Source of the DNA: Candidatus Levyibacteriota bacterium | GTDB lineage: Bacteria > Patescibacteriota > Microgenomatia > Levybacterales > UBA12049 | NCBI GenBank assembly: GCA_030651475.1 | Contig: JAUSEW010000021.1 | Span: 1,898 to 65,897, forward strand | Direction: 5' to 3' | Length of the DNA stretch: 64,000 bases | Part shown: positions 54,633 through 63,114 of the stretch, piece after piece | Layout: every line of letters starts with the position of its first letter | Numbering within the stretch: the first letter of the stretch is position 1 | Program-made: the position numbers and the translations under genes | Notes under the pieces: generated by a model | Databases searched by the model: none | Told to the model about the DNA's origin: nothing | What the model saw: the letters and a program-made list of their open reading frames with translations, nothing else

Positions 54633-55193
54633 ATGAAATTAAGAATCTTTATTGCTATAATCATAATTTTTATATTTTTTCCTCAAGTTGTTTTTGCGGA
54701 AACAATGTCTCTTAAGGAAATTCCATTATCTCCAAGTCCTAAGCAAGCTATCGGTTATGAGCTCGCATATCCTGGTCTTTTGCCGGACAGTCCTTTATAT
54801 TTCCTAAAAGTTGCTCGCGATAAGGCAATTAGTTTATTAACATCAGATCCTCTTAAAAAAGCGGAATTTGATTTATTAACTTCTGATAAGCGATTGAACT
54901 CCGCAGTCTATCTCTTCAAAAAAGGAGCAAATAAGTATGTTTTGGCAGAACAAACTATTTCAAAAGGGGAGAACTATTTTGAGGACGCAATAAAACAAGT
55001 AGAGCTTGCCAAAACACAAGGATTGTCGGTTTCGGATACCTTGTCAAATCTTTATTTAGCGTCGCAAAAACATGAGGAAGTAATAAAATCTTTGGTAAAC
55101 CAAACATCAGGGGGAATTAAAGACAATCTAATTATAGATGAAAAAAGAGTACAGGGTTTGCAGCAAAAGGTTAATGCGTTAATGTCTAAATAA
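54633..55193 (+). CDS. Secreted hypothetical protein with signal peptide
   Basis: MKLRIFIAIIIIFIFFPQVVFA signal peptide, then a helical 160-aa region. Confidence 0.45.
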   Translation: MKLRIFIAIIIIFIFFPQVVFAETMSLKEIPLSPSPKQAIGYELAYPGLLPDSPLYFLKVARDKAISLLTSDPLKKAEFDLLTSDKRLNSAVYLFKKGANKYVLAEQTISKGENYFEDAIKQVELAKTQGLSVSDTLSNLYLASQKHEEVIKSLVNQTSGGIKDNLIIDEKRVQGLQQKVNALMSK

Positions 55194-55427: not shown

Positions 55428-55877
55428 ATGAAATGTCCTTATTGCGGGTCAAAAGACTCGGAAGTGGTTGAAACCAGAGACAGCGAAGACTTAGATACTA
55501 TAAGAAGAAGAAGGGAATGTCTGAAGTGCGAAAAACGATTTACCACATACGAAAGAGTAGAAAATGCCAATTTAATAGTAATAAAAAAAGACGGAAAACG
55601 AGAGCAATTTAATAGAGATAAATTAAAAAACGGAATAATCAGATCATGCGAAAAGACAACGGTTTCTTTAGAGACAATAGATAAACTGGTTACGGATATA
55701 GAAAGAGAATTGCGCGGTGAAGATTCAGTAGAAATCGAAAGTAAAAAAATCGGACAAATGGTAGCGGCAAGACTAAAAAAGCTTGACAAGGTTGCATATA
55801 TTAGATTTTCAAGTGTATTTAAAAGATTTGTTGACATAGAAGATTTTGAAGAAGAAGTTAAAAAATTACTAAAATAA
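55428..55877 (+). CDS. nrdR: Transcriptional repressor NrdR
   Basis: MKCPYCGSKDSEVVETRDSEDLDTIRRRRECLKCEKRFTTYERVE (zinc ribbon) plus a downstream ATP-cone. Confidence 0.9.
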   Translation: MKCPYCGSKDSEVVETRDSEDLDTIRRRRECLKCEKRFTTYERVENANLIVIKKDGKREQFNRDKLKNGIIRSCEKTTVSLETIDKLVTDIERELRGEDSVEIESKKIGQMVAARLKKLDKVAYIRFSSVFKRFVDIEDFEEEVKKLLK

Positions 55878-55880
55878 ATT

Positions 55881-58295
55881 ATGAAACTTGATGGAATAAG
55901 AGAAAAAGTTTTTTTAGATAGATATGCCCTAAAAGGCGTAAAGGGAGAGCTTTTGGAGCATACTCCGGAGGAAATGTGGAAAAGAGTTGCGTGGGGTATT
56001 GCCAAAAACGAAAAGCCAAGGAATAGAAAAATTTGGGAAAAAAGATTTTACGGCGCTATGGAAGACTTTAAGTTTGTTCCAGGCGGCCGCATACTTTCAG
56101 GTGCGGGTACAAATTATCAAGTAACCTACTTTAACTGTTTCGTTATTCCGTCCCCGAAAGATTCAAGGGAAGGAATTTTGGATTCTTTAAAGCAATTAGT
56201 TGAAATTCAGTCAAGATCCGGAGGAGTAGGGTTGAATCTTTCATCTCTAAGACCAAGAGGCGCCAGAGTTAAGAAAGTTAACGGCACATCATCAGGTCCA
56301 ATTACTTGGGCAGGACTTTTTTCTTACGCCACGCATGACGTGGTTCAGCAGGGAGGAACCAGACGCGGCGCAACAATGCTGATGCTTTGGGACTGGCATC
56401 CTGACATAGAGGAATTTATCACAGTTAAACAGGATCTTTCCAAAATTAACGGCGCTAATCTTTCGGTTTGTATCTCCGATGCTTTCATGGAAGCTGTTAA
56501 AAAAGATAAAGATTGGAATCTTATTTTCCCGGATTTGGATGATCCAAAATACGACACCAAATGGAACGGGGAAATAGATGATTGGAAGAAAATTGGCGGG
56601 AAAACAAAAGTTCACAAAACTATCAAAGCGCGGTATCTTTGGAATTTAATTTGTGAAGCCGCCTGGCGTTCTGCCGAACCGGGATTACACTTTTTGGACA
56701 GAAGCAATAAAAGAAGCAACACCTGGTATTTTGAAAAATTAATAGCGACAAATCCCTGCGGAGAACAGCCTCTTGGGGCCTGGGCAGTCTGTAATCTTGG
56801 GGCAATGAATTTGGCAGCTTATGTTAAAAATGGAAAATTTGACTACGAAAGTTTTGGAAAAGACGTCAGGGTAGCAATGAGATTTATGGATAATGTTATC
56901 GATCAAACCTATTATTTCTACAAAGAAAATGAAAAAGTTGCAAAAGATATACGCCGCACCGGTCTTGGCATTATGGGTTTGGGAGACGCTCTTATCAAAA
57001 TGAAAGTTCGTTACGGATCAAAAGAGGGAATGCCAATTGTTGATAAAATTTTCAAAACCTTAAGGGATAATGCGTATGAAGCATCAGCTGATATCGCGAA
57101 AGAGAAGGGTGCATTTCCTAAATTTAACAAAGCAAAATATTTGGAAGGGTATCATATTAAAAGACTGCCAAAAGATTTGCAGAAAAAAATTGCCAAACAA
57201 GGGATAAGGAATGCAGTCCTTCTTACAATCGCTCCTACAGGAACAACTTCATTGGTTGTAGGAGTTACTTCGGGCATAGAACCTGTTTATGAATTCACTT
57301 TTATAAGAAAAGATAGAACAGGTGAGCATATAATGTACCATCCTCTTTTTGAACAATGGAAAAAGGAGAATCCCAAGGCAGAAAAGCCGGAATATTATGT
57401 CAGCGCCAATGATCTAACTCCTCTCGAACATGCGAACGTCCAGGCAGTTGCCCAGGAATATATAGATGCCTCAATTTCAAAGACTGTTAATGCGCCAAAT
57501 TCCCACACAATTGAAGACGTAAAAACGCTTTATATGGCAGCATACGATTTGGGTCTTAAGGGAGTTACCTACATGAGGGAAGGTTCCAGGGAAGGAGTTT
57601 TATCCAGAATAGAAGAAAAGCCAAAAGAGGTAATAAAACCGAAAGAAGTGGTATTTAAAGAACCTGTAACACCTCGCCCAATGCAGCTTGAAGGAGTAAC
57701 TTATCAGGTTGAAAGCCCGGTTGGTAAGACTTATATTACAATTAACCGAAATCAAAACGGAGAACCATTTGAGGTGTTTTTGACTATTGGAAAAAGCGGT
57801 TCTGATGTTGCAGCTATGGCTGATGCTCTTGGCAGAATGATCTCTCTAAATCTTAGGCTTTCCGGCGGCTTATCCCCGAGAGAGAAGATGAAGCAGGTTG
57901 TTGCACAGCTTGTAGGGATTGGCGGAGCAAGAAGCATTGGTTTTGGCAAAGATAAAGTGCGTTCTCTTCCGGATGCGGTTGCGAAAGTTTTGGCAATGCA
58001 TTACGGATTTGCTGTAAATGGAAATGTGGTAGATAAAGTAGTTTTGAGCAATGGAAACGGACACACTTTGGGTAATGGTAATGGAACAAACGGCAGCGGT
58101 AGGAAAATAGAACAAACTGAAGAATATATAGATGTTGTAAAACTGCAGCAACTAGCGCTGGTCGGAGGAGCAACTGGCGTAATGAATGATCCTGTAACTG
58201 GGCTTTATGATATTTGTCCTGATTGCGGAAGCGGAAGTTTGGCATATGAAGAAGGCTGCAGGAAATGCTATAGCTGCGGCTACTCCGAATGCTAG
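55881..58295 (+). CDS. nrdJ: Class II (adenosylcobalamin-dependent) ribonucleotide reductase
   Basis: 804 aa. ...FVPGGRILSGAGT...NPCGEQPL...active-site Cys loops are typical of NrdJ. C-terminal zinc ribbon CPDCGSGSLAYEEGCRKCYSCGYSEC. Confidence 0.85.
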   Translation: MKLDGIREKVFLDRYALKGVKGELLEHTPEEMWKRVAWGIAKNEKPRNRKIWEKRFYGAMEDFKFVPGGRILSGAGTNYQVTYFNCFVIPSPKDSREGILDSLKQLVEIQSRSGGVGLNLSSLRPRGARVKKVNGTSSGPITWAGLFSYATHDVVQQGGTRRGATMLMLWDWHPDIEEFITVKQDLSKINGANLSVCISDAFMEAVKKDKDWNLIFPDLDDPKYDTKWNGEIDDWKKIGGKTKVHKTIKARYLWNLICEAAWRSAEPGLHFLDRSNKRSNTWYFEKLIATNPCGEQPLGAWAVCNLGAMNLAAYVKNGKFDYESFGKDVRVAMRFMDNVIDQTYYFYKENEKVAKDIRRTGLGIMGLGDALIKMKVRYGSKEGMPIVDKIFKTLRDNAYEASADIAKEKGAFPKFNKAKYLEGYHIKRLPKDLQKKIAKQGIRNAVLLTIAPTGTTSLVVGVTSGIEPVYEFTFIRKDRTGEHIMYHPLFEQWKKENPKAEKPEYYVSANDLTPLEHANVQAVAQEYIDASISKTVNAPNSHTIEDVKTLYMAAYDLGLKGVTYMREGSREGVLSRIEEKPKEVIKPKEVVFKEPVTPRPMQLEGVTYQVESPVGKTYITINRNQNGEPFEVFLTIGKSGSDVAAMADALGRMISLNLRLSGGLSPREKMKQVVAQLVGIGGARSIGFGKDKVRSLPDAVAKVLAMHYGFAVNGNVVDKVVLSNGNGHTLGNGNGTNGSGRKIEQTEEYIDVVKLQQLALVGGATGVMNDPVTGLYDICPDCGSGSLAYEEGCRKCYSCGYSEC

Positions 58296-58374
58296 TTCAA
58301 AGTTCAAAGTGCAAAGTTAAAAGTTAGTTAAAATTTTTCACTTTTCACTTTTAATTTTTAATTTATTGAGATCT

Positions 58375-58495
58375 GTATGTAGGTAAACATCGTGAAAGTC
58401 GATGGAAGAGCCGCTACTGTAATATCCAGAAAACTACATACACGAAGGTTTCCCGAGCTGGAGTTTTTTTGTTATCCTCTGGAGACCTTCAGTAT
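58375..58495 (+). ncRNA. Candidate cobalamin-riboswitch-like leader upstream of the adenosyltransferase gene
   Basis: 8-bp helix GTATGTAG (58375-58382) / CTACATAC (58434-58441) encloses a hairpin CATCG-TGAAAGT-CGATG (GGTGAAA.TCC-like P3 loop). GCCGCTACTGTAAT follows (compare riboswitch CCGCCACTGTAAT). Downstream CTCTGGAGACCTTCAG resembles the B12 box (AGGAGACCTGCC) just before the RBS of the PduO-type gene. Confidence 0.3.
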
Positions 58496-58509
58496 TTTTA
58501 TTTAATAAT

Positions 58510-59058
58510 ATGCCGATTTATACGCGGACAGGGGATAAAGGATATACCTCTTTTTTTAATGGCCAGAGGATTTCAAAATCAGATTCAAGAGTGGATGTTT
58601 ATGGGACGATTGATGAGCTTAATTCGGCAATTGGTATGGCGATTGCTGAATTAATAAGGATTAAGGATAAAGGATTAAGTATTAAAAGTGAATTGGAACG
58701 GATTCAGAATGATTTGCTGGATATTGGATCTGCGTTAGCAAATCCAGCCTCAAAACCTTTAAATTATTTGGAAAAGAGAGTGAAGGAATTCGAGGATTTT
58801 ATAGACCAAATGACCAAGCAAATGCCGATTTTGAAAAATTTCATCTTACCCGGCGGAGGGAAAACCGGCGCCTTACTTCATTTCGCCAGAACGGTTTGTA
58901 GGAGAGCGGAAAGAAATTTGGTCAAACTATCGGAAAACGGAAAAATAGATAACAATATAATCATTTATATAAATAGACTTTCGGACTTGCTTTTTACCAT
59001 GGCTCGCTTTGCAAATTTTAAAGAAAAGAAAAAAGAAATAATTTGGTTCAAAAAATAA
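58510..59058 (+). CDS. PduO-type ATP:cob(I)alamin adenosyltransferase
   Basis: MPIYTRTGDKGYTSFFNGQRISKSDSRVDVYGTIDELNSAIG is the hallmark N-terminus of the PduO/MMAB family. Confidence 0.85.
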   Translation: MPIYTRTGDKGYTSFFNGQRISKSDSRVDVYGTIDELNSAIGMAIAELIRIKDKGLSIKSELERIQNDLLDIGSALANPASKPLNYLEKRVKEFEDFIDQMTKQMPILKNFILPGGGKTGALLHFARTVCRRAERNLVKLSENGKIDNNIIIYINRLSDLLFTMARFANFKEKKKEIIWFKK

Positions 59059-59173
59059 TTGTTTGGGTGAATCTAGTGTAATTCTAGAACTGTGCCGCAA
59101 CTGTATTTCAGCTCAAAGCTGAAGAGTCAGAGCCCCCTTAAAAGCCTTCCGAGCTAGAAGCAATTTTTTTGTT

Positions 59174-59198
59174 TCTCCTCGGAATGAGGAGTTTTTTT
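59174..59198 (+). terminator. Rho-independent terminator-like hairpin
   Basis: TCTCCTC-ggaat-GAGGAG followed by TTTTTTT (59192-59198). Confidence 0.5.
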
Positions 59199-59241
59199 AT
59201 GCCCGTTCAGCAGGCTTAGGGCATACTAAAGAATTTAAAGT

Positions 59242-60300
59242 ATGGTTGAACGACAATCCTTGGCATTTAGACACGAATTTTACGAAGAGGCAAAAGAACA
59301 CCAAATAAGAGACGATCTTGTTTCTTATCTTGGAGAGTATAGGTTTGAGGTATCGGAATTCAATTATAGGCTAGGTATCTCTAACGGGATTTTGGTAGAT
59401 CCAAATACAGGTGAATCAATGAGTCTGAAAGCAAAAAGGGCAATAGAATTCAAAAGAAGACGCGGTTTAAATACCTCAAGAGAAGAAGCAGAATTTGAGG
59501 GATTTATTAATCTTGAGCAAGGCCTTTCTAAAAAACCTTTTGGTGTTGCTGTTTGGCTTAGTCCGCCTGGTCAAAAAGCAGAAGGTTGTGGTGATTATGG
59601 TTTCGCATTCGTTGGCAAAAGAAATGGTAACGAATTAGAGATGACGGCAATAAGGCTCGAAAATCCAACAATTAACGATTTTAATAAGGCTGCAAATGCT
59701 TTGTGGGGCGAAAAAGGGTACGAAAAAGTAGAGGATTTGTTAAGACAGCCAATGGTAATAGATATCTCTTTGGACAAAGTTAAAGAATTTATTCACGGAA
59801 ATTTTGAGATAAAAGATGAGCAAAGCAAAACAATTTTTGGAAAAGCCTTGGATAAATTGAGCGGAATAATCGATGAGGTAGCTCTAATTATTAAAACCGG
59901 AACTTCGGAACAAAAACAAAAAGCATTTCATACACTAGAAAATTTAGCGATTGAGCTTAAAGAAAGATTAGGGGCTCTTTTTAAAGAAAATGTTATTTTT
60001 ATGTCGGATTATAGAATATCCAAGCTTGCTACTTTTATGGGAATAGATAGATATACAAACAAGCCTAAGCTAGTTGCGGGAAGCTGCGGAAGCACATCAG
60101 ACAGAAACTCATTGAATAGTAGCAATGTCTTTTCTAAATATTCTTCTTTAAATGGTTTATTGTCATTATCAGAAGATAATGAATGGTTTACTTGTCCGAA
60201 GTGTAATTATAAAGCAACCGGTCCTGTTGGAGATGAATGCCCTAAGTGTCACATTACTAAAGAAGAATTTGCAGAATCAGGCGCAGAAGTTTGTGATTGA
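59242..60300 (+). CDS. Hypothetical protein with C-terminal zinc ribbon
   Basis: 352 aa. The C-terminal CPKCNYKATGPVGDECPKCH is a C4 zinc ribbon. The N-terminal 300 aa has no motif I recognise. Confidence 0.45.
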   Translation: MVERQSLAFRHEFYEEAKEHQIRDDLVSYLGEYRFEVSEFNYRLGISNGILVDPNTGESMSLKAKRAIEFKRRRGLNTSREEAEFEGFINLEQGLSKKPFGVAVWLSPPGQKAEGCGDYGFAFVGKRNGNELEMTAIRLENPTINDFNKAANALWGEKGYEKVEDLLRQPMVIDISLDKVKEFIHGNFEIKDEQSKTIFGKALDKLSGIIDEVALIIKTGTSEQKQKAFHTLENLAIELKERLGALFKENVIFMSDYRISKLATFMGIDRYTNKPKLVAGSCGSTSDRNSLNSSNVFSKYSSLNGLLSLSEDNEWFTCPKCNYKATGPVGDECPKCHITKEEFAESGAEVCD

Positions 60301-60741: not shown

Positions 60742-63114
60742 ATGCAAACATCTTCTTTTGGTAATTTAGGCAGTCTTTTGACCTCTTTGGTGCTTGGAAT
60801 TATAGGTGCGGTAGTTCTTGTGATAGGTATTTATTGGGGATTTTATCTATTATTCCTTTGGATTAAGCACCGAAACCGCGAAAAAGAATCTCTGAATTCA
60901 GTTCTTTTGCAAGTTGCAGTGCCACGAGACAATGAGATTAAAATTGATGCGGCAGAGCAACTTTTCTCCGCTTTAGCATCAATAAGAAAAGGAGGAAGAT
61001 TTTCTTCTTTAAGTCCCCAACCTCAATTATCATTTGAAATAGTAGGTCTTCCGGGAAGTATCCGTTTTTTTGTCCATACGCCAAAAAATCTTCAGGATTT
61101 GATTGAAAAACAAATAAACGGCGTTTATCCGGATGCAGAAATAAAAATTATCGAGGATAAAGATTTTGGGCAAAAGCAATTTCTGGTAGGCAATGAATAT
61201 AATATTTTCTCCGAAAATGGAAGAGTTGCCTTCGCGTCTTTGAAACTAAAGTCCTTAGATTATCAGCCGATAAAAGTTTTCAAAGATTTGCCGGTTGATC
61301 CGCTTTCCTCAATTACTTCCATACTTGCCAAAATGATAGAAGGGGAAGGAGCGGCGATACAAATAATGGTGAGTCCTGCAGATGATCAGTGGAAAAAGGC
61401 AGGACGCGCGCATATTACTAAAGTCAAAAAAGCCGAAGCTAATCCGGAAACTGCCAAATATTCCGCTGACCCCAAAGAATTGGAGGCAATAGAGAATAAA
61501 ATTTCCAAGCCCGGTTTTAATGTTGTTGTCAGAATGGTTGTTTCCTCAAGTACGATTGAATCTGCGAAAGCCCACCTTAGCAATATCAAAAGCGCATTTA
61601 GCCAATTTAACGGCATAAATTCATTTACCAGCAATAAGCATATCTTTAAAGGCGCGTTCGCCAATGACTTTATCTATCGATATATGCCAATGCGGGGCCA
61701 AACTTCGATTTTGACAAGCGAAGAGCTAGCGACGATTTTCCATTTTCCCAACAAAGCGATTACAACTCCGCATATACTTTGGATTACTTCCAAAAGAGCG
61801 CCGGCTCCTATGCAGACTCCAACCAGCGGACTTTATTTGGGTAAAAGTACATATCGGGGACTGGCGAAGCCTGTGTATATGAGTTTGGATGATCGAAGAA
61901 GACATATGTATATCATTGGGAAAACAGGTACCGGGAAAAGCGAGTTTCTAAAAGCGATGATTATGCAGGATATTAAAAACGGAGAAGGGTTGGCTGTTAT
62001 CGACCCTCATGGAGATTTAATCGAAGATATGCTGCCGCTTATTCCTCCAAGCCGGGCAGAAGATGTCATACTTTTTGATCCATCGGACACCGCCAGACCA
62101 ATGGGTTTAAATATGCTTGAAGCCCAAACAGAAGAACAAAAGCACTATGTTGTTTCTTCGATTATAGGGCTTATGTACAAGCTTTTTGATCCGAATAAAA
62201 CAGGTATCATCGGTCCTCGTTTTGAGCATGCGATAAGAAATGCTATGTTAACGGTTATGTATGAAGAGGGAAGTACTTTCGTTGAGGTAGTAAGAATTTT
62301 AACGGATGCAAATTTCGTACAAGAACTTCTGCCAAAAGTTTTAGATCCGATTGTGAGACGTTACTGGACAGATCAAATTGCCCAAACATCTGATTTTCAT
62401 AAGTCCGAAGTCCTGGATTACATCGTTTCCAAGTTTGGCAGATTTGTTACGAATAAAATGATTAGGAATATCATTGGACAATCTTTAAGCTCTTTTAACT
62501 TCAGGAAAGTTATGGATGAAAAGAAAATATTGCTGATTAATTTATCGAAAGGAAAAATTGGAGAAGAGAACTCAAACTTCTTAGGACTTGTAATTGTTCC
62601 GAAGATTTTAGTTGCGGCAATGTCAAGGCAGGATATGCCAATGGCGAGCCGGCGTGATTTCTTTCTTTATGTTGATGAGTTCCAGAATTTCGCGACTCCT
62701 GATTTCGCCCAGATTCTTTCAGAAGCCCGTAAATACAGACTTAATTTAATTGTTGCGAATCAGTTTATAGGGCAAATGGAAGAGGAAGTAAAAAATGCCA
62801 TTTTTGGCAATATCGGAACTCTGGCTTCCTTTAGAGTCGGAGTAACGGATGCAAATTATCTACAGCATGAATTTCAGCCTGTATTTGCGGAAGCGGATTT
62901 AATAAATGTTGAAAGATACAATACATATGTAAAAACAATTGTTAACGGCGAGCCGGTTACGCCATTTTCTATGGATTTGACTCGGGATATGAGTAAGGAA
63001 AAGGCCCTAGCAAATCCTCGAGTTGCGGAATTAGTTCGGGAATTATCGCGCCTTAAATATGGAAAAGATGCAGCCGCAGTTGAAGCAGTAATCTCTCAAC
63101 GCGCGAGGCTCTAA
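60742..63114 (+). CDS. Membrane-anchored P-loop ATPase, VirD4/TraG-type coupling-protein-like (FtsK/HerA superfamily)
   Basis: N-terminal TM pair (LVLGIIGAVVLVIGIYWGFYLLFLWI), Walker A IIGKTGTGKSEF and Walker B LYVDEFQNFATP. Downstream ARKYRLNLIVANQFIGQM (R-finger/Q motif) is typical of T4 coupling proteins and DUF87/HerA-like ATPases. Confidence 0.55.
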   Translation: MQTSSFGNLGSLLTSLVLGIIGAVVLVIGIYWGFYLLFLWIKHRNREKESLNSVLLQVAVPRDNEIKIDAAEQLFSALASIRKGGRFSSLSPQPQLSFEIVGLPGSIRFFVHTPKNLQDLIEKQINGVYPDAEIKIIEDKDFGQKQFLVGNEYNIFSENGRVAFASLKLKSLDYQPIKVFKDLPVDPLSSITSILAKMIEGEGAAIQIMVSPADDQWKKAGRAHITKVKKAEANPETAKYSADPKELEAIENKISKPGFNVVVRMVVSSSTIESAKAHLSNIKSAFSQFNGINSFTSNKHIFKGAFANDFIYRYMPMRGQTSILTSEELATIFHFPNKAITTPHILWITSKRAPAPMQTPTSGLYLGKSTYRGLAKPVYMSLDDRRRHMYIIGKTGTGKSEFLKAMIMQDIKNGEGLAVIDPHGDLIEDMLPLIPPSRAEDVILFDPSDTARPMGLNMLEAQTEEQKHYVVSSIIGLMYKLFDPNKTGIIGPRFEHAIRNAMLTVMYEEGSTFVEVVRILTDANFVQELLPKVLDPIVRRYWTDQIAQTSDFHKSEVLDYIVSKFGRFVTNKMIRNIIGQSLSSFNFRKVMDEKKILLINLSKGKIGEENSNFLGLVIVPKILVAAMSRQDMPMASRRDFFLYVDEFQNFATPDFAQILSEARKYRLNLIVANQFIGQMEEEVKNAIFGNIGTLASFRVGVTDANYLQHEFQPVFAEADLINVERYNTYVKTIVNGEPVTPFSMDLTRDMSKEKALANPRVAELVRELSRLKYGKDAAAVEAVISQRARL

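Follow-up and report, generated by a model that had tools for sequence, protein, structure and literature searches.

Introduction

Cobalamin riboswitches are assigned to class I (Cbl-I; RF00174 or RF01482 type) when a P2 loop-stem-loop lies between P1 and P3 and P6 carries a long extension (P7-P11). The class-II riboswitch env8HyCbl (PDB 4FRN), of the HOCbl/MeCbl-selective subclass Cbl-IIa, is the structural prototype for RF01689 (formerly AdoCbl-variant). It has a P3-P6 junction, a T-loop in L4, a short P6 without P7-P11 and a GCC..ACUG core, as well as a bulged J1/3 T-loop which contacts J6/3. Its P13 hairpin links the aptamer to expression through an L5-L13 kissing loop with an unpaired L13 purine; such kissing loops follow the rule that at least one nucleotide is left unpaired (PMC5028336). 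In env8, translation is controlled through a ribosome binding site (RBS) located in L13. In the AdoCbl-selective Cbl-IIb riboswitches, only a short segment of J1/3 is left, paired or mismatched, and P6 has a small extension (PMC7367189, PMC6158498). The eut-associated AdoCbl riboswitch of Enterococcus faecalis is one example.

The corrinoid riboswitch of Priestia megaterium metE, a class I element with UCCCG in L5, is repressing. Its P13 is stabilized by a kissing loop and its alternative pairing engages the 5' strand of the terminator, according to a P13 / antiterminator / terminator rule (PMC10327014). Activation by a corrinoid was first reported, as of 2023, for the Alkalihalobacillus halodurans cobT riboswitch, whose ligand is cobinamide. 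In this case, P13 and the terminator are mutually exclusive, as established experimentally, and activation has been shown by mutagenesis (PMC10327014).

We have analyzed a stretch of 64,000 nt from a Levybacteria genome, which we call the window. The leader of its pduO gene is a riboswitch of a known kind. It is unusual only in its remodelled output hairpin, which may make it an ON switch.

Results

The aptamer and its family

The leader lies between nrdJ, the gene for a B12-dependent ribonucleotide reductase, and a pduO-type adenosyltransferase gene. The proteins encoded around it (NrdR, NrdJ and PduO) have been confirmed with Pfam and NCBIfam; the last two were already correctly named in a first-pass annotation of the sequence. 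The same annotation placed a possible riboswitch at 58375-58509. These limits are about right, but the element is slightly wider on the 5' side: it extends from about 58369 to about 58503. The aptamer and its kissing-loop partner, hairpin P13, occupy positions 58369-58462. All features are given in Table 1.

Table 1. Predicted features of the pduO leader, in window coordinates.
Feature	Position	Strand	Sequence or pairing	Remarks
P1-extension, 5' strand (putative helix)	58369-58374	+	AGAUCU	Pairs with AGGUUU, 58446-58451
P3, 5' strand	58375-58382	+	GUAUGUAG	Closing helix of the four-way junction; pairs with 58434-58441
P4 and L4	58388-58404	+	CAUCG/CGAUG, 7-nt L4 UGAAAGU	GNGNAANUC T-loop signature; RF01689 P4/L4 positions
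P5 and L5	58407-58415 (L5 58409-58413)	+	A-U and G-C, closing L5 AGCCG	Aptamer half of the kissing loop
P6 and L6	58417-58429	+	CUG/CAG, short L6 UAAUAUC	99.4% paired
B12-box equivalent	58424-58439	+	AUCCAGAAAACUACAU	P6 3' strand, J6/3 AAAA (58430-58433), start of P3 3' strand
P3, 3' strand	58434-58441	+	CUACAUAC	Covariation in family alignment
Hairpin H	58444-58490	+	Lower stem GAAGGUUUCC (58444-58453) / GGAGACCUUC (58481-58490)	
P1-extension, 3' strand (putative helix)	58446-58451	+	AGGUUU	Also in the 5' strand of hairpin H
P13 mini-hairpin	58451-58462 (L13 58454-58459)	+	Stem UCC/GGA, 6-nt L13 CGAGCU	Covariation
U7 run	58464-58470	+		Straight after P13; apical loop of hairpin H
U-rich tract	58491-58503	+	AGUAUUUUUAUUU	After H; candidate termination site, predicted only
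pduO-type ATP:cob(I)alamin adenosyltransferase gene	58510-59058	+	Start ATG at 58510	PF01923 (3.7e-59); NCBIfam TIGR00636, 196.6 bits (cut-off 108)

A scan of the whole window with Rfam at the curated gathering threshold gives no match. Within clan CL00101, the best match to the leader is RF01689 (AdoCbl-II), one of the families suggested in the first-pass annotation. It aligns over the full model (1-81) with 34.7 bits and an E-value of 1.1e-6, but this is 1.8 bits short of the gathering threshold of 36.5 bits. Sixteen relatives, from the one batch of 20 loci that was scanned, lie over this cut-off, with 37-58 bits. We have also built a family covariance model (R1) from 85 metagenomic relatives, leaving out the window. 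It gives 87.1 bits (E 2.4e-18) for the window copy, which is mid-range among the 120 family matches. A core pattern of 24 bases is found once in the window and in none of 100 shuffles.

The family was collected by searching metagenomes with the core pattern, which gave at least 120 loci. Besides the Rfam scan, the first-pass annotation had proposed to look for covariation in homologous loci and for the leader upstream of orthologous adenosyltransferase genes, and both turned out in favor of the riboswitch. The helices and the L5-L13 kissing loop covary over about 120 relatives (119 distinct). Paired cells amount to 88%, compared with 70% in shuffles and 33-43% when the partner is slid; two-sided changes are seen in 21 of the 28 pairs, and none of 500 shuffles reaches the covariation score of 0.431 (0.127 in shuffles). 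All nine pairs of P3 show two-sided changes, and five of the six pairs of P4 covary. For the outer pair of P5, 87 relatives have U-A and 31 have A-U, and 99.6% of cells are paired. The P1-extension, a putative helix proposed from the sequence, is the weakest: six pairs are possible, two of them G-U, and the duplex has an energy of -1.9 kcal/mol. Relatives in the subclade have an equivalent pairing, ACCU/AAGGU.

The leader is also found upstream of the orthologous pduO on 34 other metagenomic contigs, and in genomes of Candidate Phyla Radiation (CPR) bacteria. Among the loci sampled, relatives are found only in CPR bacteria, and the PduO relatives of the Levybacteria genome are all on CPR-type contigs. 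In the collection of papers that we searched, no cobalamin riboswitches are described for CPR or Patescibacteria. Family copies precede pduO (35 cases), DUF4430, DUF6580 and genes for an uncharacterized zinc-ribbon protein; DUF4430 and DUF6580 have a putative role in B12 binding or uptake. In 48 of 112 copies, the leader is located 16-140 nt past the stop codon of nrdJ, measured to the conserved GTG of L4.

From the blank default scan and the Rfam score under the threshold, one might suspect that AT-rich intergenic DNA happens to look like a cobalamin riboswitch here. Such a chance resemblance is extremely improbable, being already refuted by the family model, the covarying helices and the orthologous positions of the leader, and the core pattern is absent from the shuffles. 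The family model, the RF01689 score and the covariation agree with the compact cobalamin riboswitch controlling pduO which the first-pass annotation had suggested. Judging from its sequence, we consider it almost certain that a class-II cobalamin riboswitch of the AdoCbl-II (RF01689) type occupies 58369-58503 in the pduO leader; pduO, the B12-related gene downstream in cis, is the gene predicted to be regulated.

Several parts of the aptamer had been noticed in the first-pass annotation. Its 8-bp closing helix is P3, in which GTATGTAG (58375-58382) pairs with CTACATAC (58434-58441), and the core-like GCCGCTACTGTAAT is indeed present at 58410-58423. The hairpin CATCG-TGAAAGT-CGATG is found at 58388-58404, but in the standard numbering of cobalamin riboswitches it corresponds to P4/L4 and not to P3, as had been supposed. 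The B12 box had been looked for in the wrong place: GGAGACCT, present at 58481-58488, was taken for a B12 box at the RBS, but it belongs to hairpin H, on the 3' side, and 22 nt separate its end from the start codon. According to Rfam and the family alignments, the B12-box equivalent is ATCCAGAAAACTACAT (58424-58439), which aligns to the CcGAGcGCCaCc segment of RF01689. Since CAGAAAAC is part of our search pattern, the fact that it never varies in the family cannot be counted as separate evidence.

The four-way junction P3-P6, the L4 T-loop hairpin and the GCC(N)C(N)ACUG / CAG-J6/3 core are all present in the window, as in env8HyCbl; the junction, with the L4 T-loop and J6/3 AAAA, would form the corrinoid pocket. 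The Cbl-I features are missing: there is no P2, and P6 has only 3 bp and a loop of 7 nt, its lack of an extension being a class-II feature. Unlike env8HyCbl, the window copy has AAAA as J6/3 and no bulged J1/3 T-loop. The P1-extension and P3 are continuous on the 5' strand, and the internal-loop positions of RF01689 are occupied by paired or mismatched bases. As there is no J1/3 bulge, the architecture appears closest to the AdoCbl-selective Cbl-IIb subclass, with which it shares the class-II core, the reduced J1/3 and the small P6 (PMC7367189, PMC6158498). AdoCbl selectivity would suit feedback control of an adenosyltransferase. The likeness is by description only: a short P6 hairpin is typical of Cbl-IIb, whereas P6 in the window ends in a plain loop; short hairpin inserts are found in some relatives. 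The E. faecalis element also works from another kind of RNA, a trans-acting sRNA instead of an mRNA leader.

The P13 hairpin and the kissing loop

The kissing-loop partner of L5, which links the aptamer to gene expression, had been missed in the first-pass annotation. It is a minimal hairpin, a 6-nt L13 of the form CGAGC(A/U) on a 3-bp stem, which differs from that of env8HyCbl and has no RBS. Five pairs join the two loops (A58409-U58459, G58410-C58458, C58411-G58457, C58412-G58455 and G58413-C58454), and A58456 is bulged, in agreement with the unpaired-nucleotide rule and with the unpaired L13 purine of env8HyCbl. Although absent from the search pattern, the P13/L13 motif is found in about 110 of the 119 relatives. 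All three pairs of the stem covary (CC/GG, CU/AG, UU/AA, CA/UG). The kissing loop is 97.5% paired, and the first base of L5 covaries with the last base of L13: U-A (97 cases) is swapped to A-U (9 cases) in the subclade of the window. L165 has this swap as well, in a different P5/L5 context. We had considered CCCGAGCAGGA as a single-stranded kissing partner or antiterminator strand only; it was replaced by the P13 mini-hairpin, as the flanking bases covary.

When cobalamin is bound, L5 would dock onto the P13 loop by its five pairs around the bulged A, and this docking would hold P13 and the P1-extension in place. The dependence of docking on the ligand is suggested by analogy with env8 and P. 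megaterium metE. It is very probable that the kissing loop couples the aptamer to expression.

A CTGGAG-T7 motif had been read as terminator-like, at 58460-58471. The motif exists (CTGGAG 58458-58463, T7 58464-58470), about two bases away from those coordinates, and consists of the last bases of L13, the 3' strand of P13 and the U-run. It is not an intrinsic terminator: the sole stem before it is the 3-bp P13, with only -0.6 kcal/mol by itself. The polymerase may pause at the U7 run, which all five leaders of the type described below share with some of the canonical relatives.

Hairpin H and the direction of control

In the minimum-free-energy fold, the P13 region forms a different structure, hairpin H (-16.9 kcal/mol). 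Above the lower stem, the P13 sequence pairs with UCCUC (58475-58479). H takes positions 58444-58461, that is, the whole 5' strand and loop of P13 and most of its 3' strand, so it is mutually exclusive with the P1-extension and with P13. H is homologous to the antiterminator of canonical relatives (L084, L106, L136, L161). In the window copy and four relatives (L205, L093, L211 and L206), which we call H-variants, the 3' strand of the terminator is missing and pduO has no Shine-Dalgarno sequence.

Most relatives linked to pduO (about 29 of 35) have a P13 / antiterminator / terminator platform, with the same three-hairpin logic as P. megaterium metE (PMC10327014), from which an OFF switch is predicted. 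In these relatives, the antiterminator would compete with a terminator that hides the Shine-Dalgarno sequence, and cobalamin would turn pduO off. When J1/13 and P13 are sequestered, canonical relatives still form a hairpin (-12.6 to -14.5 kcal/mol) with U6-7 and the ATG straight after it, whereas the five H-variants only reach -1.3 to -5.1 kcal/mol, with no terminator. Their leaders, folded freely, form H at -17 to -20 kcal/mol.

Over five relatives, 83% of cells preserve the pairing of H, compared with 41-58% for slid partner strands. There is no significant covariation in H, the score being equal to that of shuffles; with five sequences there are too few, and they resemble each other too closely. 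AUUUUU follows H in four of the five H-variant leaders, L206 having no U-tract. As a terminator H has some defects: a 13-nt loop, internal mismatches and an interrupted U-tract which begins 3-4 nt past the stem. A consensus terminator scan does not call it.

The loss of the terminator 3' strand and of the Shine-Dalgarno sequence, with H beside a U-tract, makes an inverted output the most likely one: the window switch would be ON with cobalamin, unlike its relatives, a reading to which we give a little less than an even chance. In the absence of ligand, 58444-58461 would pair with 58475-58490 to form H, with AGUAUUUUUAUUU next to it, and H would terminate transcription. Cobalamin would block H, allowing RNA polymerase to read into pduO. 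The terminator function of H and the U-tract is a prediction from folding models. Comparing secondary-structure energies, the H state is favored over the bound-like state by 15.7 kcal/mol, so the switch would have to be kinetic.

The exclusion of P13 by H agrees with what is known of activating switches. As in A. halodurans cobT, P13 excludes the only terminator-like hairpin, and a stabilized P13 would be the antiterminator (PMC10327014); no other terminator is found when P13 is held. The two systems differ in aptamer class, ligand and gene. The terminator candidate in the window also overlaps the P1-extension, its U-tract is suboptimal, and activation is only predicted.

The riboswitch is probably transcribed within an nrdR-nrdJ-pduO message. 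Between nrdJ and the riboswitch we have found no convincing promoter: a consensus scan is blank and there are just weak -10-like hexamers (TAATTT). This, together with a long AT-rich hairpin after nrdJ (58299-58358), makes the source of the transcript uncertain. A second copy of the riboswitch is found at 59052-59199, predicted to sense cobalamin and gate the gene after pduO.

Discussion

The explanation which we favor combines a class-II riboswitch, coupling by the kissing loop and an ON output based on H; as a whole, it has about an even chance of being correct. The same riboswitch might still repress pduO, as in its relatives, which we consider unlikely. Cobalamin could free the 3' strand of H, exposing a single strand to Rho or RNase, or P13 locked by the ligand, with the U7 run (58451-58470), could stop or pause the polymerase. 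OFF-type platforms predominate among pduO-linked relatives, and a physiological reason would be needed for turning the same gene ON. The simplest physiology is that AdoCbl, the product of the adenosyltransferase, represses it. The aptamer also looks Cbl-IIb-like (PMC7367189), and a U7-8 run directly follows P13 in all five H-variants. Nevertheless, the 3-bp stem of P13 is far weaker than known intrinsic terminators, and U-runs after P13 are also found in relatives with a separate, proper terminator. The freed strand offers only about 16 nt before AU-rich sequence begins, a poor Rho loading site, and nothing occludes the start codon in the bound-like fold.

It is also conceivable, but quite unlikely, that the aptamer is intact and the expression platform broken: loss of the terminator 3' strand would have left an antiterminator-like hairpin that is permanently formed, and cobalamin would not control pduO, which would just be expressed along with nrdJ. 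The missing terminator strand and Shine-Dalgarno sequence agree with this, as does L206, which has H but no U-tract. The control appears dispensable in a close relative, L212, in which nrdJ is followed by 8 nt and then pduO, with no riboswitch. On the other hand, the window and L205 are 100% identical (121/121) in the block 58372-58492, which includes the aptamer, P13 and H, compared with 65-89% in adjacent coding and non-coding DNA. The pduO genes of both are 78% identical (65% at third codon positions), and the flanking leader is rich in indels; after the block there is one mismatch and then the conserved AUUUUU. The identity of the block may be a sign of selection. In addition, the variant persists in five leaders which differ in the sequence of L5/L13 and in the P6 insertion, and which score 75-89 bits with R1. 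Such persistence and identity are not expected of a dead element.

If cobalamin does activate pduO in the window, a simple origin may be proposed: loss of the 3' half of the terminator would have put the former antiterminator beside the old U-tract. We tentatively suggest that the window copy, L205, L093, L211 and L206 could be natural sign-flipped class-II cobalamin riboswitches, a possibility that we hold as rather less than even.

In summary, a B12 riboswitch is missed in genome annotation at the standard Rfam threshold. The Levybacteria genome is predicted to gate a B12 adenosyltransferase directly downstream of a B12-dependent ribonucleotide reductase. A class-II lineage is documented across CPR bacteria, with a very small P13/L13 module, and the uncharacterized zinc-ribbon protein family in its regulon is a candidate for a new B12-related function. 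If the ON reading is true, control of the same gene, pduO, within the nrdJ-pduO operon would have changed from B12-repressed to B12-activated. Only one natural kind of corrinoid riboswitch that activates, A. halodurans cobT (PMC10327014), would precede it, and none in class II or in CPR bacteria. Sister lineages would have kept OFF forms of the ancestral type and ON forms of the derived type, providing close relatives for direct comparison, and the loss of half a terminator would be a simple natural route to flip the sign of regulation.

Identity of the riboswitch

The leader between nrdJ and pduO carries a class-II cobalamin riboswitch, which we call riboswitch 1 (window 58369-58503, approximately). 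Its flanking genes are those named in the first-pass annotation, as the profile matches to TIGR02504 (nrdJ) and to PF01923 and TIGR00636 (pduO) establish. The window belongs to a Candidatus Levybacteria genome, within the Candidate Phyla Radiation, and its PduO protein is 100% identical to an NCBI protein from a Levybacteria MAG. The features of this region are collected in the Table.

Rfam in its default gathering mode gives no matches in the entire window. When 58250-58600 is searched in E-value mode, RF01689, the AdoCbl-II model, gives a full-length match at 58365-58444 with 34.7 bits (E 1.1e-6), while the curated cut-off is 36.5 bits: it is a near miss rather than a negative. R1, a family covariance model which we built from 85 metagenomic relatives, leaving out the window, scores 87.1 bits (E 2.4e-18, span 58368-58466), in the middle of the range of 120 family hits. 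On both counts the compact cobalamin riboswitch proposed in the first-pass annotation is right, and riboswitch 1 is a further AdoCbl-II (Cbl-II) member, narrowly below the Rfam cut-off. All the sequence elements listed there are found in it, some under other names. The TGAAAGT hairpin is P4/L4, not P3, and what was taken for a terminator, CTGGAG-T7, consists of the final bases of L13, the P13 3' strand and a run of U. GGAGACCT is not the B12 box: RF01689 and R1 both align the equivalent of this box to ATCCAGAAAACTACAT (58424-39). As a ribosome binding site GGAGACCT was also rejected; it ends 22 nt 5' of the ATG.

A PduO-based retrieval, limited to a single genome for each species, showed this leader 5' of pduO in three Candidate Phyla Radiation (CPR) genomes (L001, L006 and L007); it is absent from other CPR loci. 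A pattern of 24 bases, taken solely from the L4-L5-P6-J6/3 core, matches once in the window, never in 100 shuffles, and at least 120 times in metagenomes, counted as loci. Together with the earlier loci, these gave 119 non-redundant copies. When 20 such loci were scanned with Rfam, 16 copies reached the RF01689 cut-off (37-58 bits), so the lineage is already within the known family; four longer copies were assigned to RF00174 or RF01482. In a set of 80 PduO loci spanning the bacteria, the family recognized by R1 is carried by CPR loci alone, the sole exception being a hit in a Streptococcus locus (27 bits, opposite strand).

Features of the nrdJ-pduO region (window positions)
Feature	Position	Remarks
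nrdR	55428-55877	TIGR00244, 191 bits
nrdJ	55881-58295	TIGR02504, 591 bits
Leader between nrdJ and pduO		214 nt
P1 extension	58369-74 / 58446-51
P3	58375-82 / 58434-41	GTATGTAG / CTACATAC, closing helix of the first-pass annotation
P4/L4	58388-58404	CATCG-TGAAAGT-CGATG hairpin
P5	58407-08 / 58414-15
L5	58409-13
Riboswitch core of the first-pass annotation	58410-23	GCCGCTACTGTAAT
P6/L6	58417-29
J6/3	58430-33	AAAA
P13	58451-53 / 58460-62
L13	58454-59
CTGGAG, then T7	58458-63, then 58464-70
GGAGACCT	58481-88
pduO (PduO-type adenosyltransferase)	58510-59058	PF01923, 3.7e-59; TIGR00636, 197 bits
Spacer after pduO		183 nt
Riboswitch 2, class II	59052-59199	Between pduO and the next ORF
Riboswitch 2 terminator	59175-59198	CUCCUCGGAAUGAGGAG-U7
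Uncharacterised ORF	59242-60300	3' of the pduO spacer

Secondary structure and kissing loop

Covariation was analyzed in an R1-based alignment of 119 distinct sequences. Standard pairs occupy 88.1% of the pair cells; the figure is 70.0% for shuffles and 33-43% for slid partners. Both sides change in 21 of the 28 pairs, and the covariation score (0.431, against 0.127 for shuffles) is matched by none of 500 shuffles. Covariation is seen in P3, P4 and P5; the invariance of P6 is imposed by the search pattern.

About 110 of the 119 copies have a motif (U)CC-CGAGCA-GG(A) 3' of the aptamer, outside the search pattern. Its flanks covary (CC/GG, CU/AG, CUU/AAG, UCA/UGA) around six near-invariant bases, so it is a mini-hairpin, P13, whose loop L13 has 6 nt. 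L5, UGCCG, is complementary to CG(A)GCA in L13, with five pairs and one bulged A. The first base of L5 and the last of L13 are U-A in 97 copies, A-U in nine and U-G in three; the A-U swap occurs in the subclade of the window and in L165, a relative in which the sequence context is unlike that of this subclade. This pairing is the L5-L13 kissing loop, the defining element of signalling in cobalamin riboswitches. In env8 and the wider clan, the kissing loop is presented by a stem-loop and has at least one unpaired nucleotide (PMC5028336). Aptamer and kissing-loop module are ordinary for the lineage in the window copy.

Riboswitch 1 belongs to class II, since it has neither a P6 extension nor P2. 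Unlike Cbl-IIa, it lacks the defining bulged J1/3 T-loop: the 5' strand of the P1 extension is continuous into P3. A paired or mismatched J1/3 is a hallmark of the AdoCbl-selective Cbl-IIb (PMC7367189; PMC6158498), and because the bulge is absent we infer that the window copy is probably an AdoCbl-type sensor.

Expression platforms and direction of the switch

Of 30 copies 5' of an unknown Cys4-ribbon protein, 26 are translational: GGA(G) on the 3' side of P13 serves as the Shine-Dalgarno sequence, at a distance of 5-9 nt from the ATG. In about 29 of the 35 copies linked to pduO, three hairpins compete: P13, an antiterminator (CCCGAG(C)AGGA paired with UCCU(U)CUCGGG) and a terminator (UCCUUCUC...GAGAAGGA-U6-8), whose 3' strand holds the Shine-Dalgarno sequence and reaches directly to the ATG. 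If J1/13 and P13 are made unavailable, a terminator of -12.6 to -14.5 kcal/mol is left in canonical relatives. The repressing logic which their folds predict has been demonstrated for P. megaterium metE (PMC10327014).

The window leader and four relatives (L205, L093, L211 and L206) lack the terminator 3' strand and the Shine-Dalgarno sequence. In the window the antiterminator homologue is lengthened downward, GAAGGUUUCC (58444-53) pairing with GGAGACCUUC (58481-90), and the resulting hairpin H (58444-58490, -16.9 kcal/mol) dominates the minimum-free-energy fold. Among canonical relatives, the nearest (L084, L106, L136 and L161) have an equivalent lower stem, GGUUUCCC/GGGAAACC, within the antiterminator, so H is homologous to an antiterminator. 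Covariation of H is not significant in the five sequences. AGUAUUUUUAUUU directly follows H in the window, and AUUUUU follows it in four of the five variants; the U-tract begins 3-4 nt past the stem and is missing in L206.

H takes up the P1-extension 3' strand and almost the whole of P13 and is therefore incompatible with the ligand-bound fold. With these bases held, the most stable structures left downstream in the five leaders reach only -1.3 to -5.1 kcal/mol. A switch whose antiterminator is P13 itself has been shown experimentally to activate in A. halodurans cobT (PMC10327014). Because this rule is applied to the exclusivity of P13 and H, our tentative prediction is an ON switch: without cobalamin, H would form and transcription would terminate, while with cobalamin P13 would be held, H blocked and pduO reached by read-through. 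A platform which turns pduO OFF by another mechanism seems unlikely to us, and one which does not regulate at all slightly more so. Besides the covariation and the U-tract of H, two points call for caution. By secondary-structure energies the H state is more stable than the bound-like state by 15.7 kcal/mol, so the switch would need kinetic control. In L212, a close relative, no riboswitch separates nrdJ from pduO, which begins 8 nt after the nrdJ stop (L212:1557-1564); L212 retains the second riboswitch after pduO, and its downstream ORF is 78% identical to that of the window. Riboswitch 1 is therefore evolutionarily labile. On the other side, 121 nt (58372-58492) covering aptamer, P13 and H are identical between the window and L205, followed by one mismatch and the conserved AUUUUU. 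The flanks have diverged: pduO is 78% identical (65% at third codon positions), nrdJ is 89% identical over its last 600 nt, and the remaining leader is indel-rich. This argues against a decaying remnant. The ON switch stays our tentative reading; the platform of the window copy is a derived variant, perhaps inverting the response.

The second riboswitch

Riboswitch 2 scores 40.7 bits with R1 at 59052-59162 and 27.8 bits, below the cut-off, with RF01689. Its P6 carries an insertion, its P13-like element is CUUC-CGAGCUA-GAAG, and its antiterminator and terminator (59175-59191, then T7) are canonical. Many loci have two copies, and in many related loci a tandem pair flanks pduO. Between the riboswitch 2 terminator and the start of the ORF there is a small palindromic insert, ATGCCCGTTCAGCAGGCTTAGGGCAT (59200-59225). 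Its core, TTCGRCARGCTCAG, is shared by inserts at other CPR loci (L106, L126, L184, L193 and L201), which lie in P6 loops, in the loops of terminators or likewise after the terminator. They look like a miniature repeat element which tolerates or prefers riboswitch loops.

Gene context

The genes 3' of the 119 copies code for PduO (35, window included), an uncharacterised protein of 320-430 aa with a C-terminal Cys4 ribbon (30), DUF4430 proteins (22) and DUF6580 or ECF-S-like membrane proteins (6). A DUF5667 protein is encoded at 54633-55193. At 60742-63114, just 3' of the B12 gene cluster, lies the gene for a VirD4/TraG-like type IV coupling ATPase, which is also a neighbour in the relative L213.

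A long AT-rich imperfect inverted repeat (58299-58358), with arms of about 26 bp and a U-rich run after it, lies directly 3' of the nrdJ stop. It may serve as a terminator for nrdJ or as a site of processing. The matching region of L205 has only CAAAA repeats resembling the left arm, without the hairpin. We found no convincing sigma-70-type promoter between nrdJ and riboswitch 1, and in many relatives the riboswitch begins right after nrdJ. Its transcript more likely arises by read-through from nrdJ. In the family, the nrdJ stop codon lies 16-140 nt before 48 of 112 copies, measured to the conserved GTG of L4, and many nrdJ-adjacent copies leave no space for a promoter. The riboswitch is often an attenuator within an nrdJ operon. 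An intercistronic gate, between the gene for a B12-dependent reductase and genes for B12 uptake or activation, is a common role of the family copies (L081-L200; window 58295-58375).
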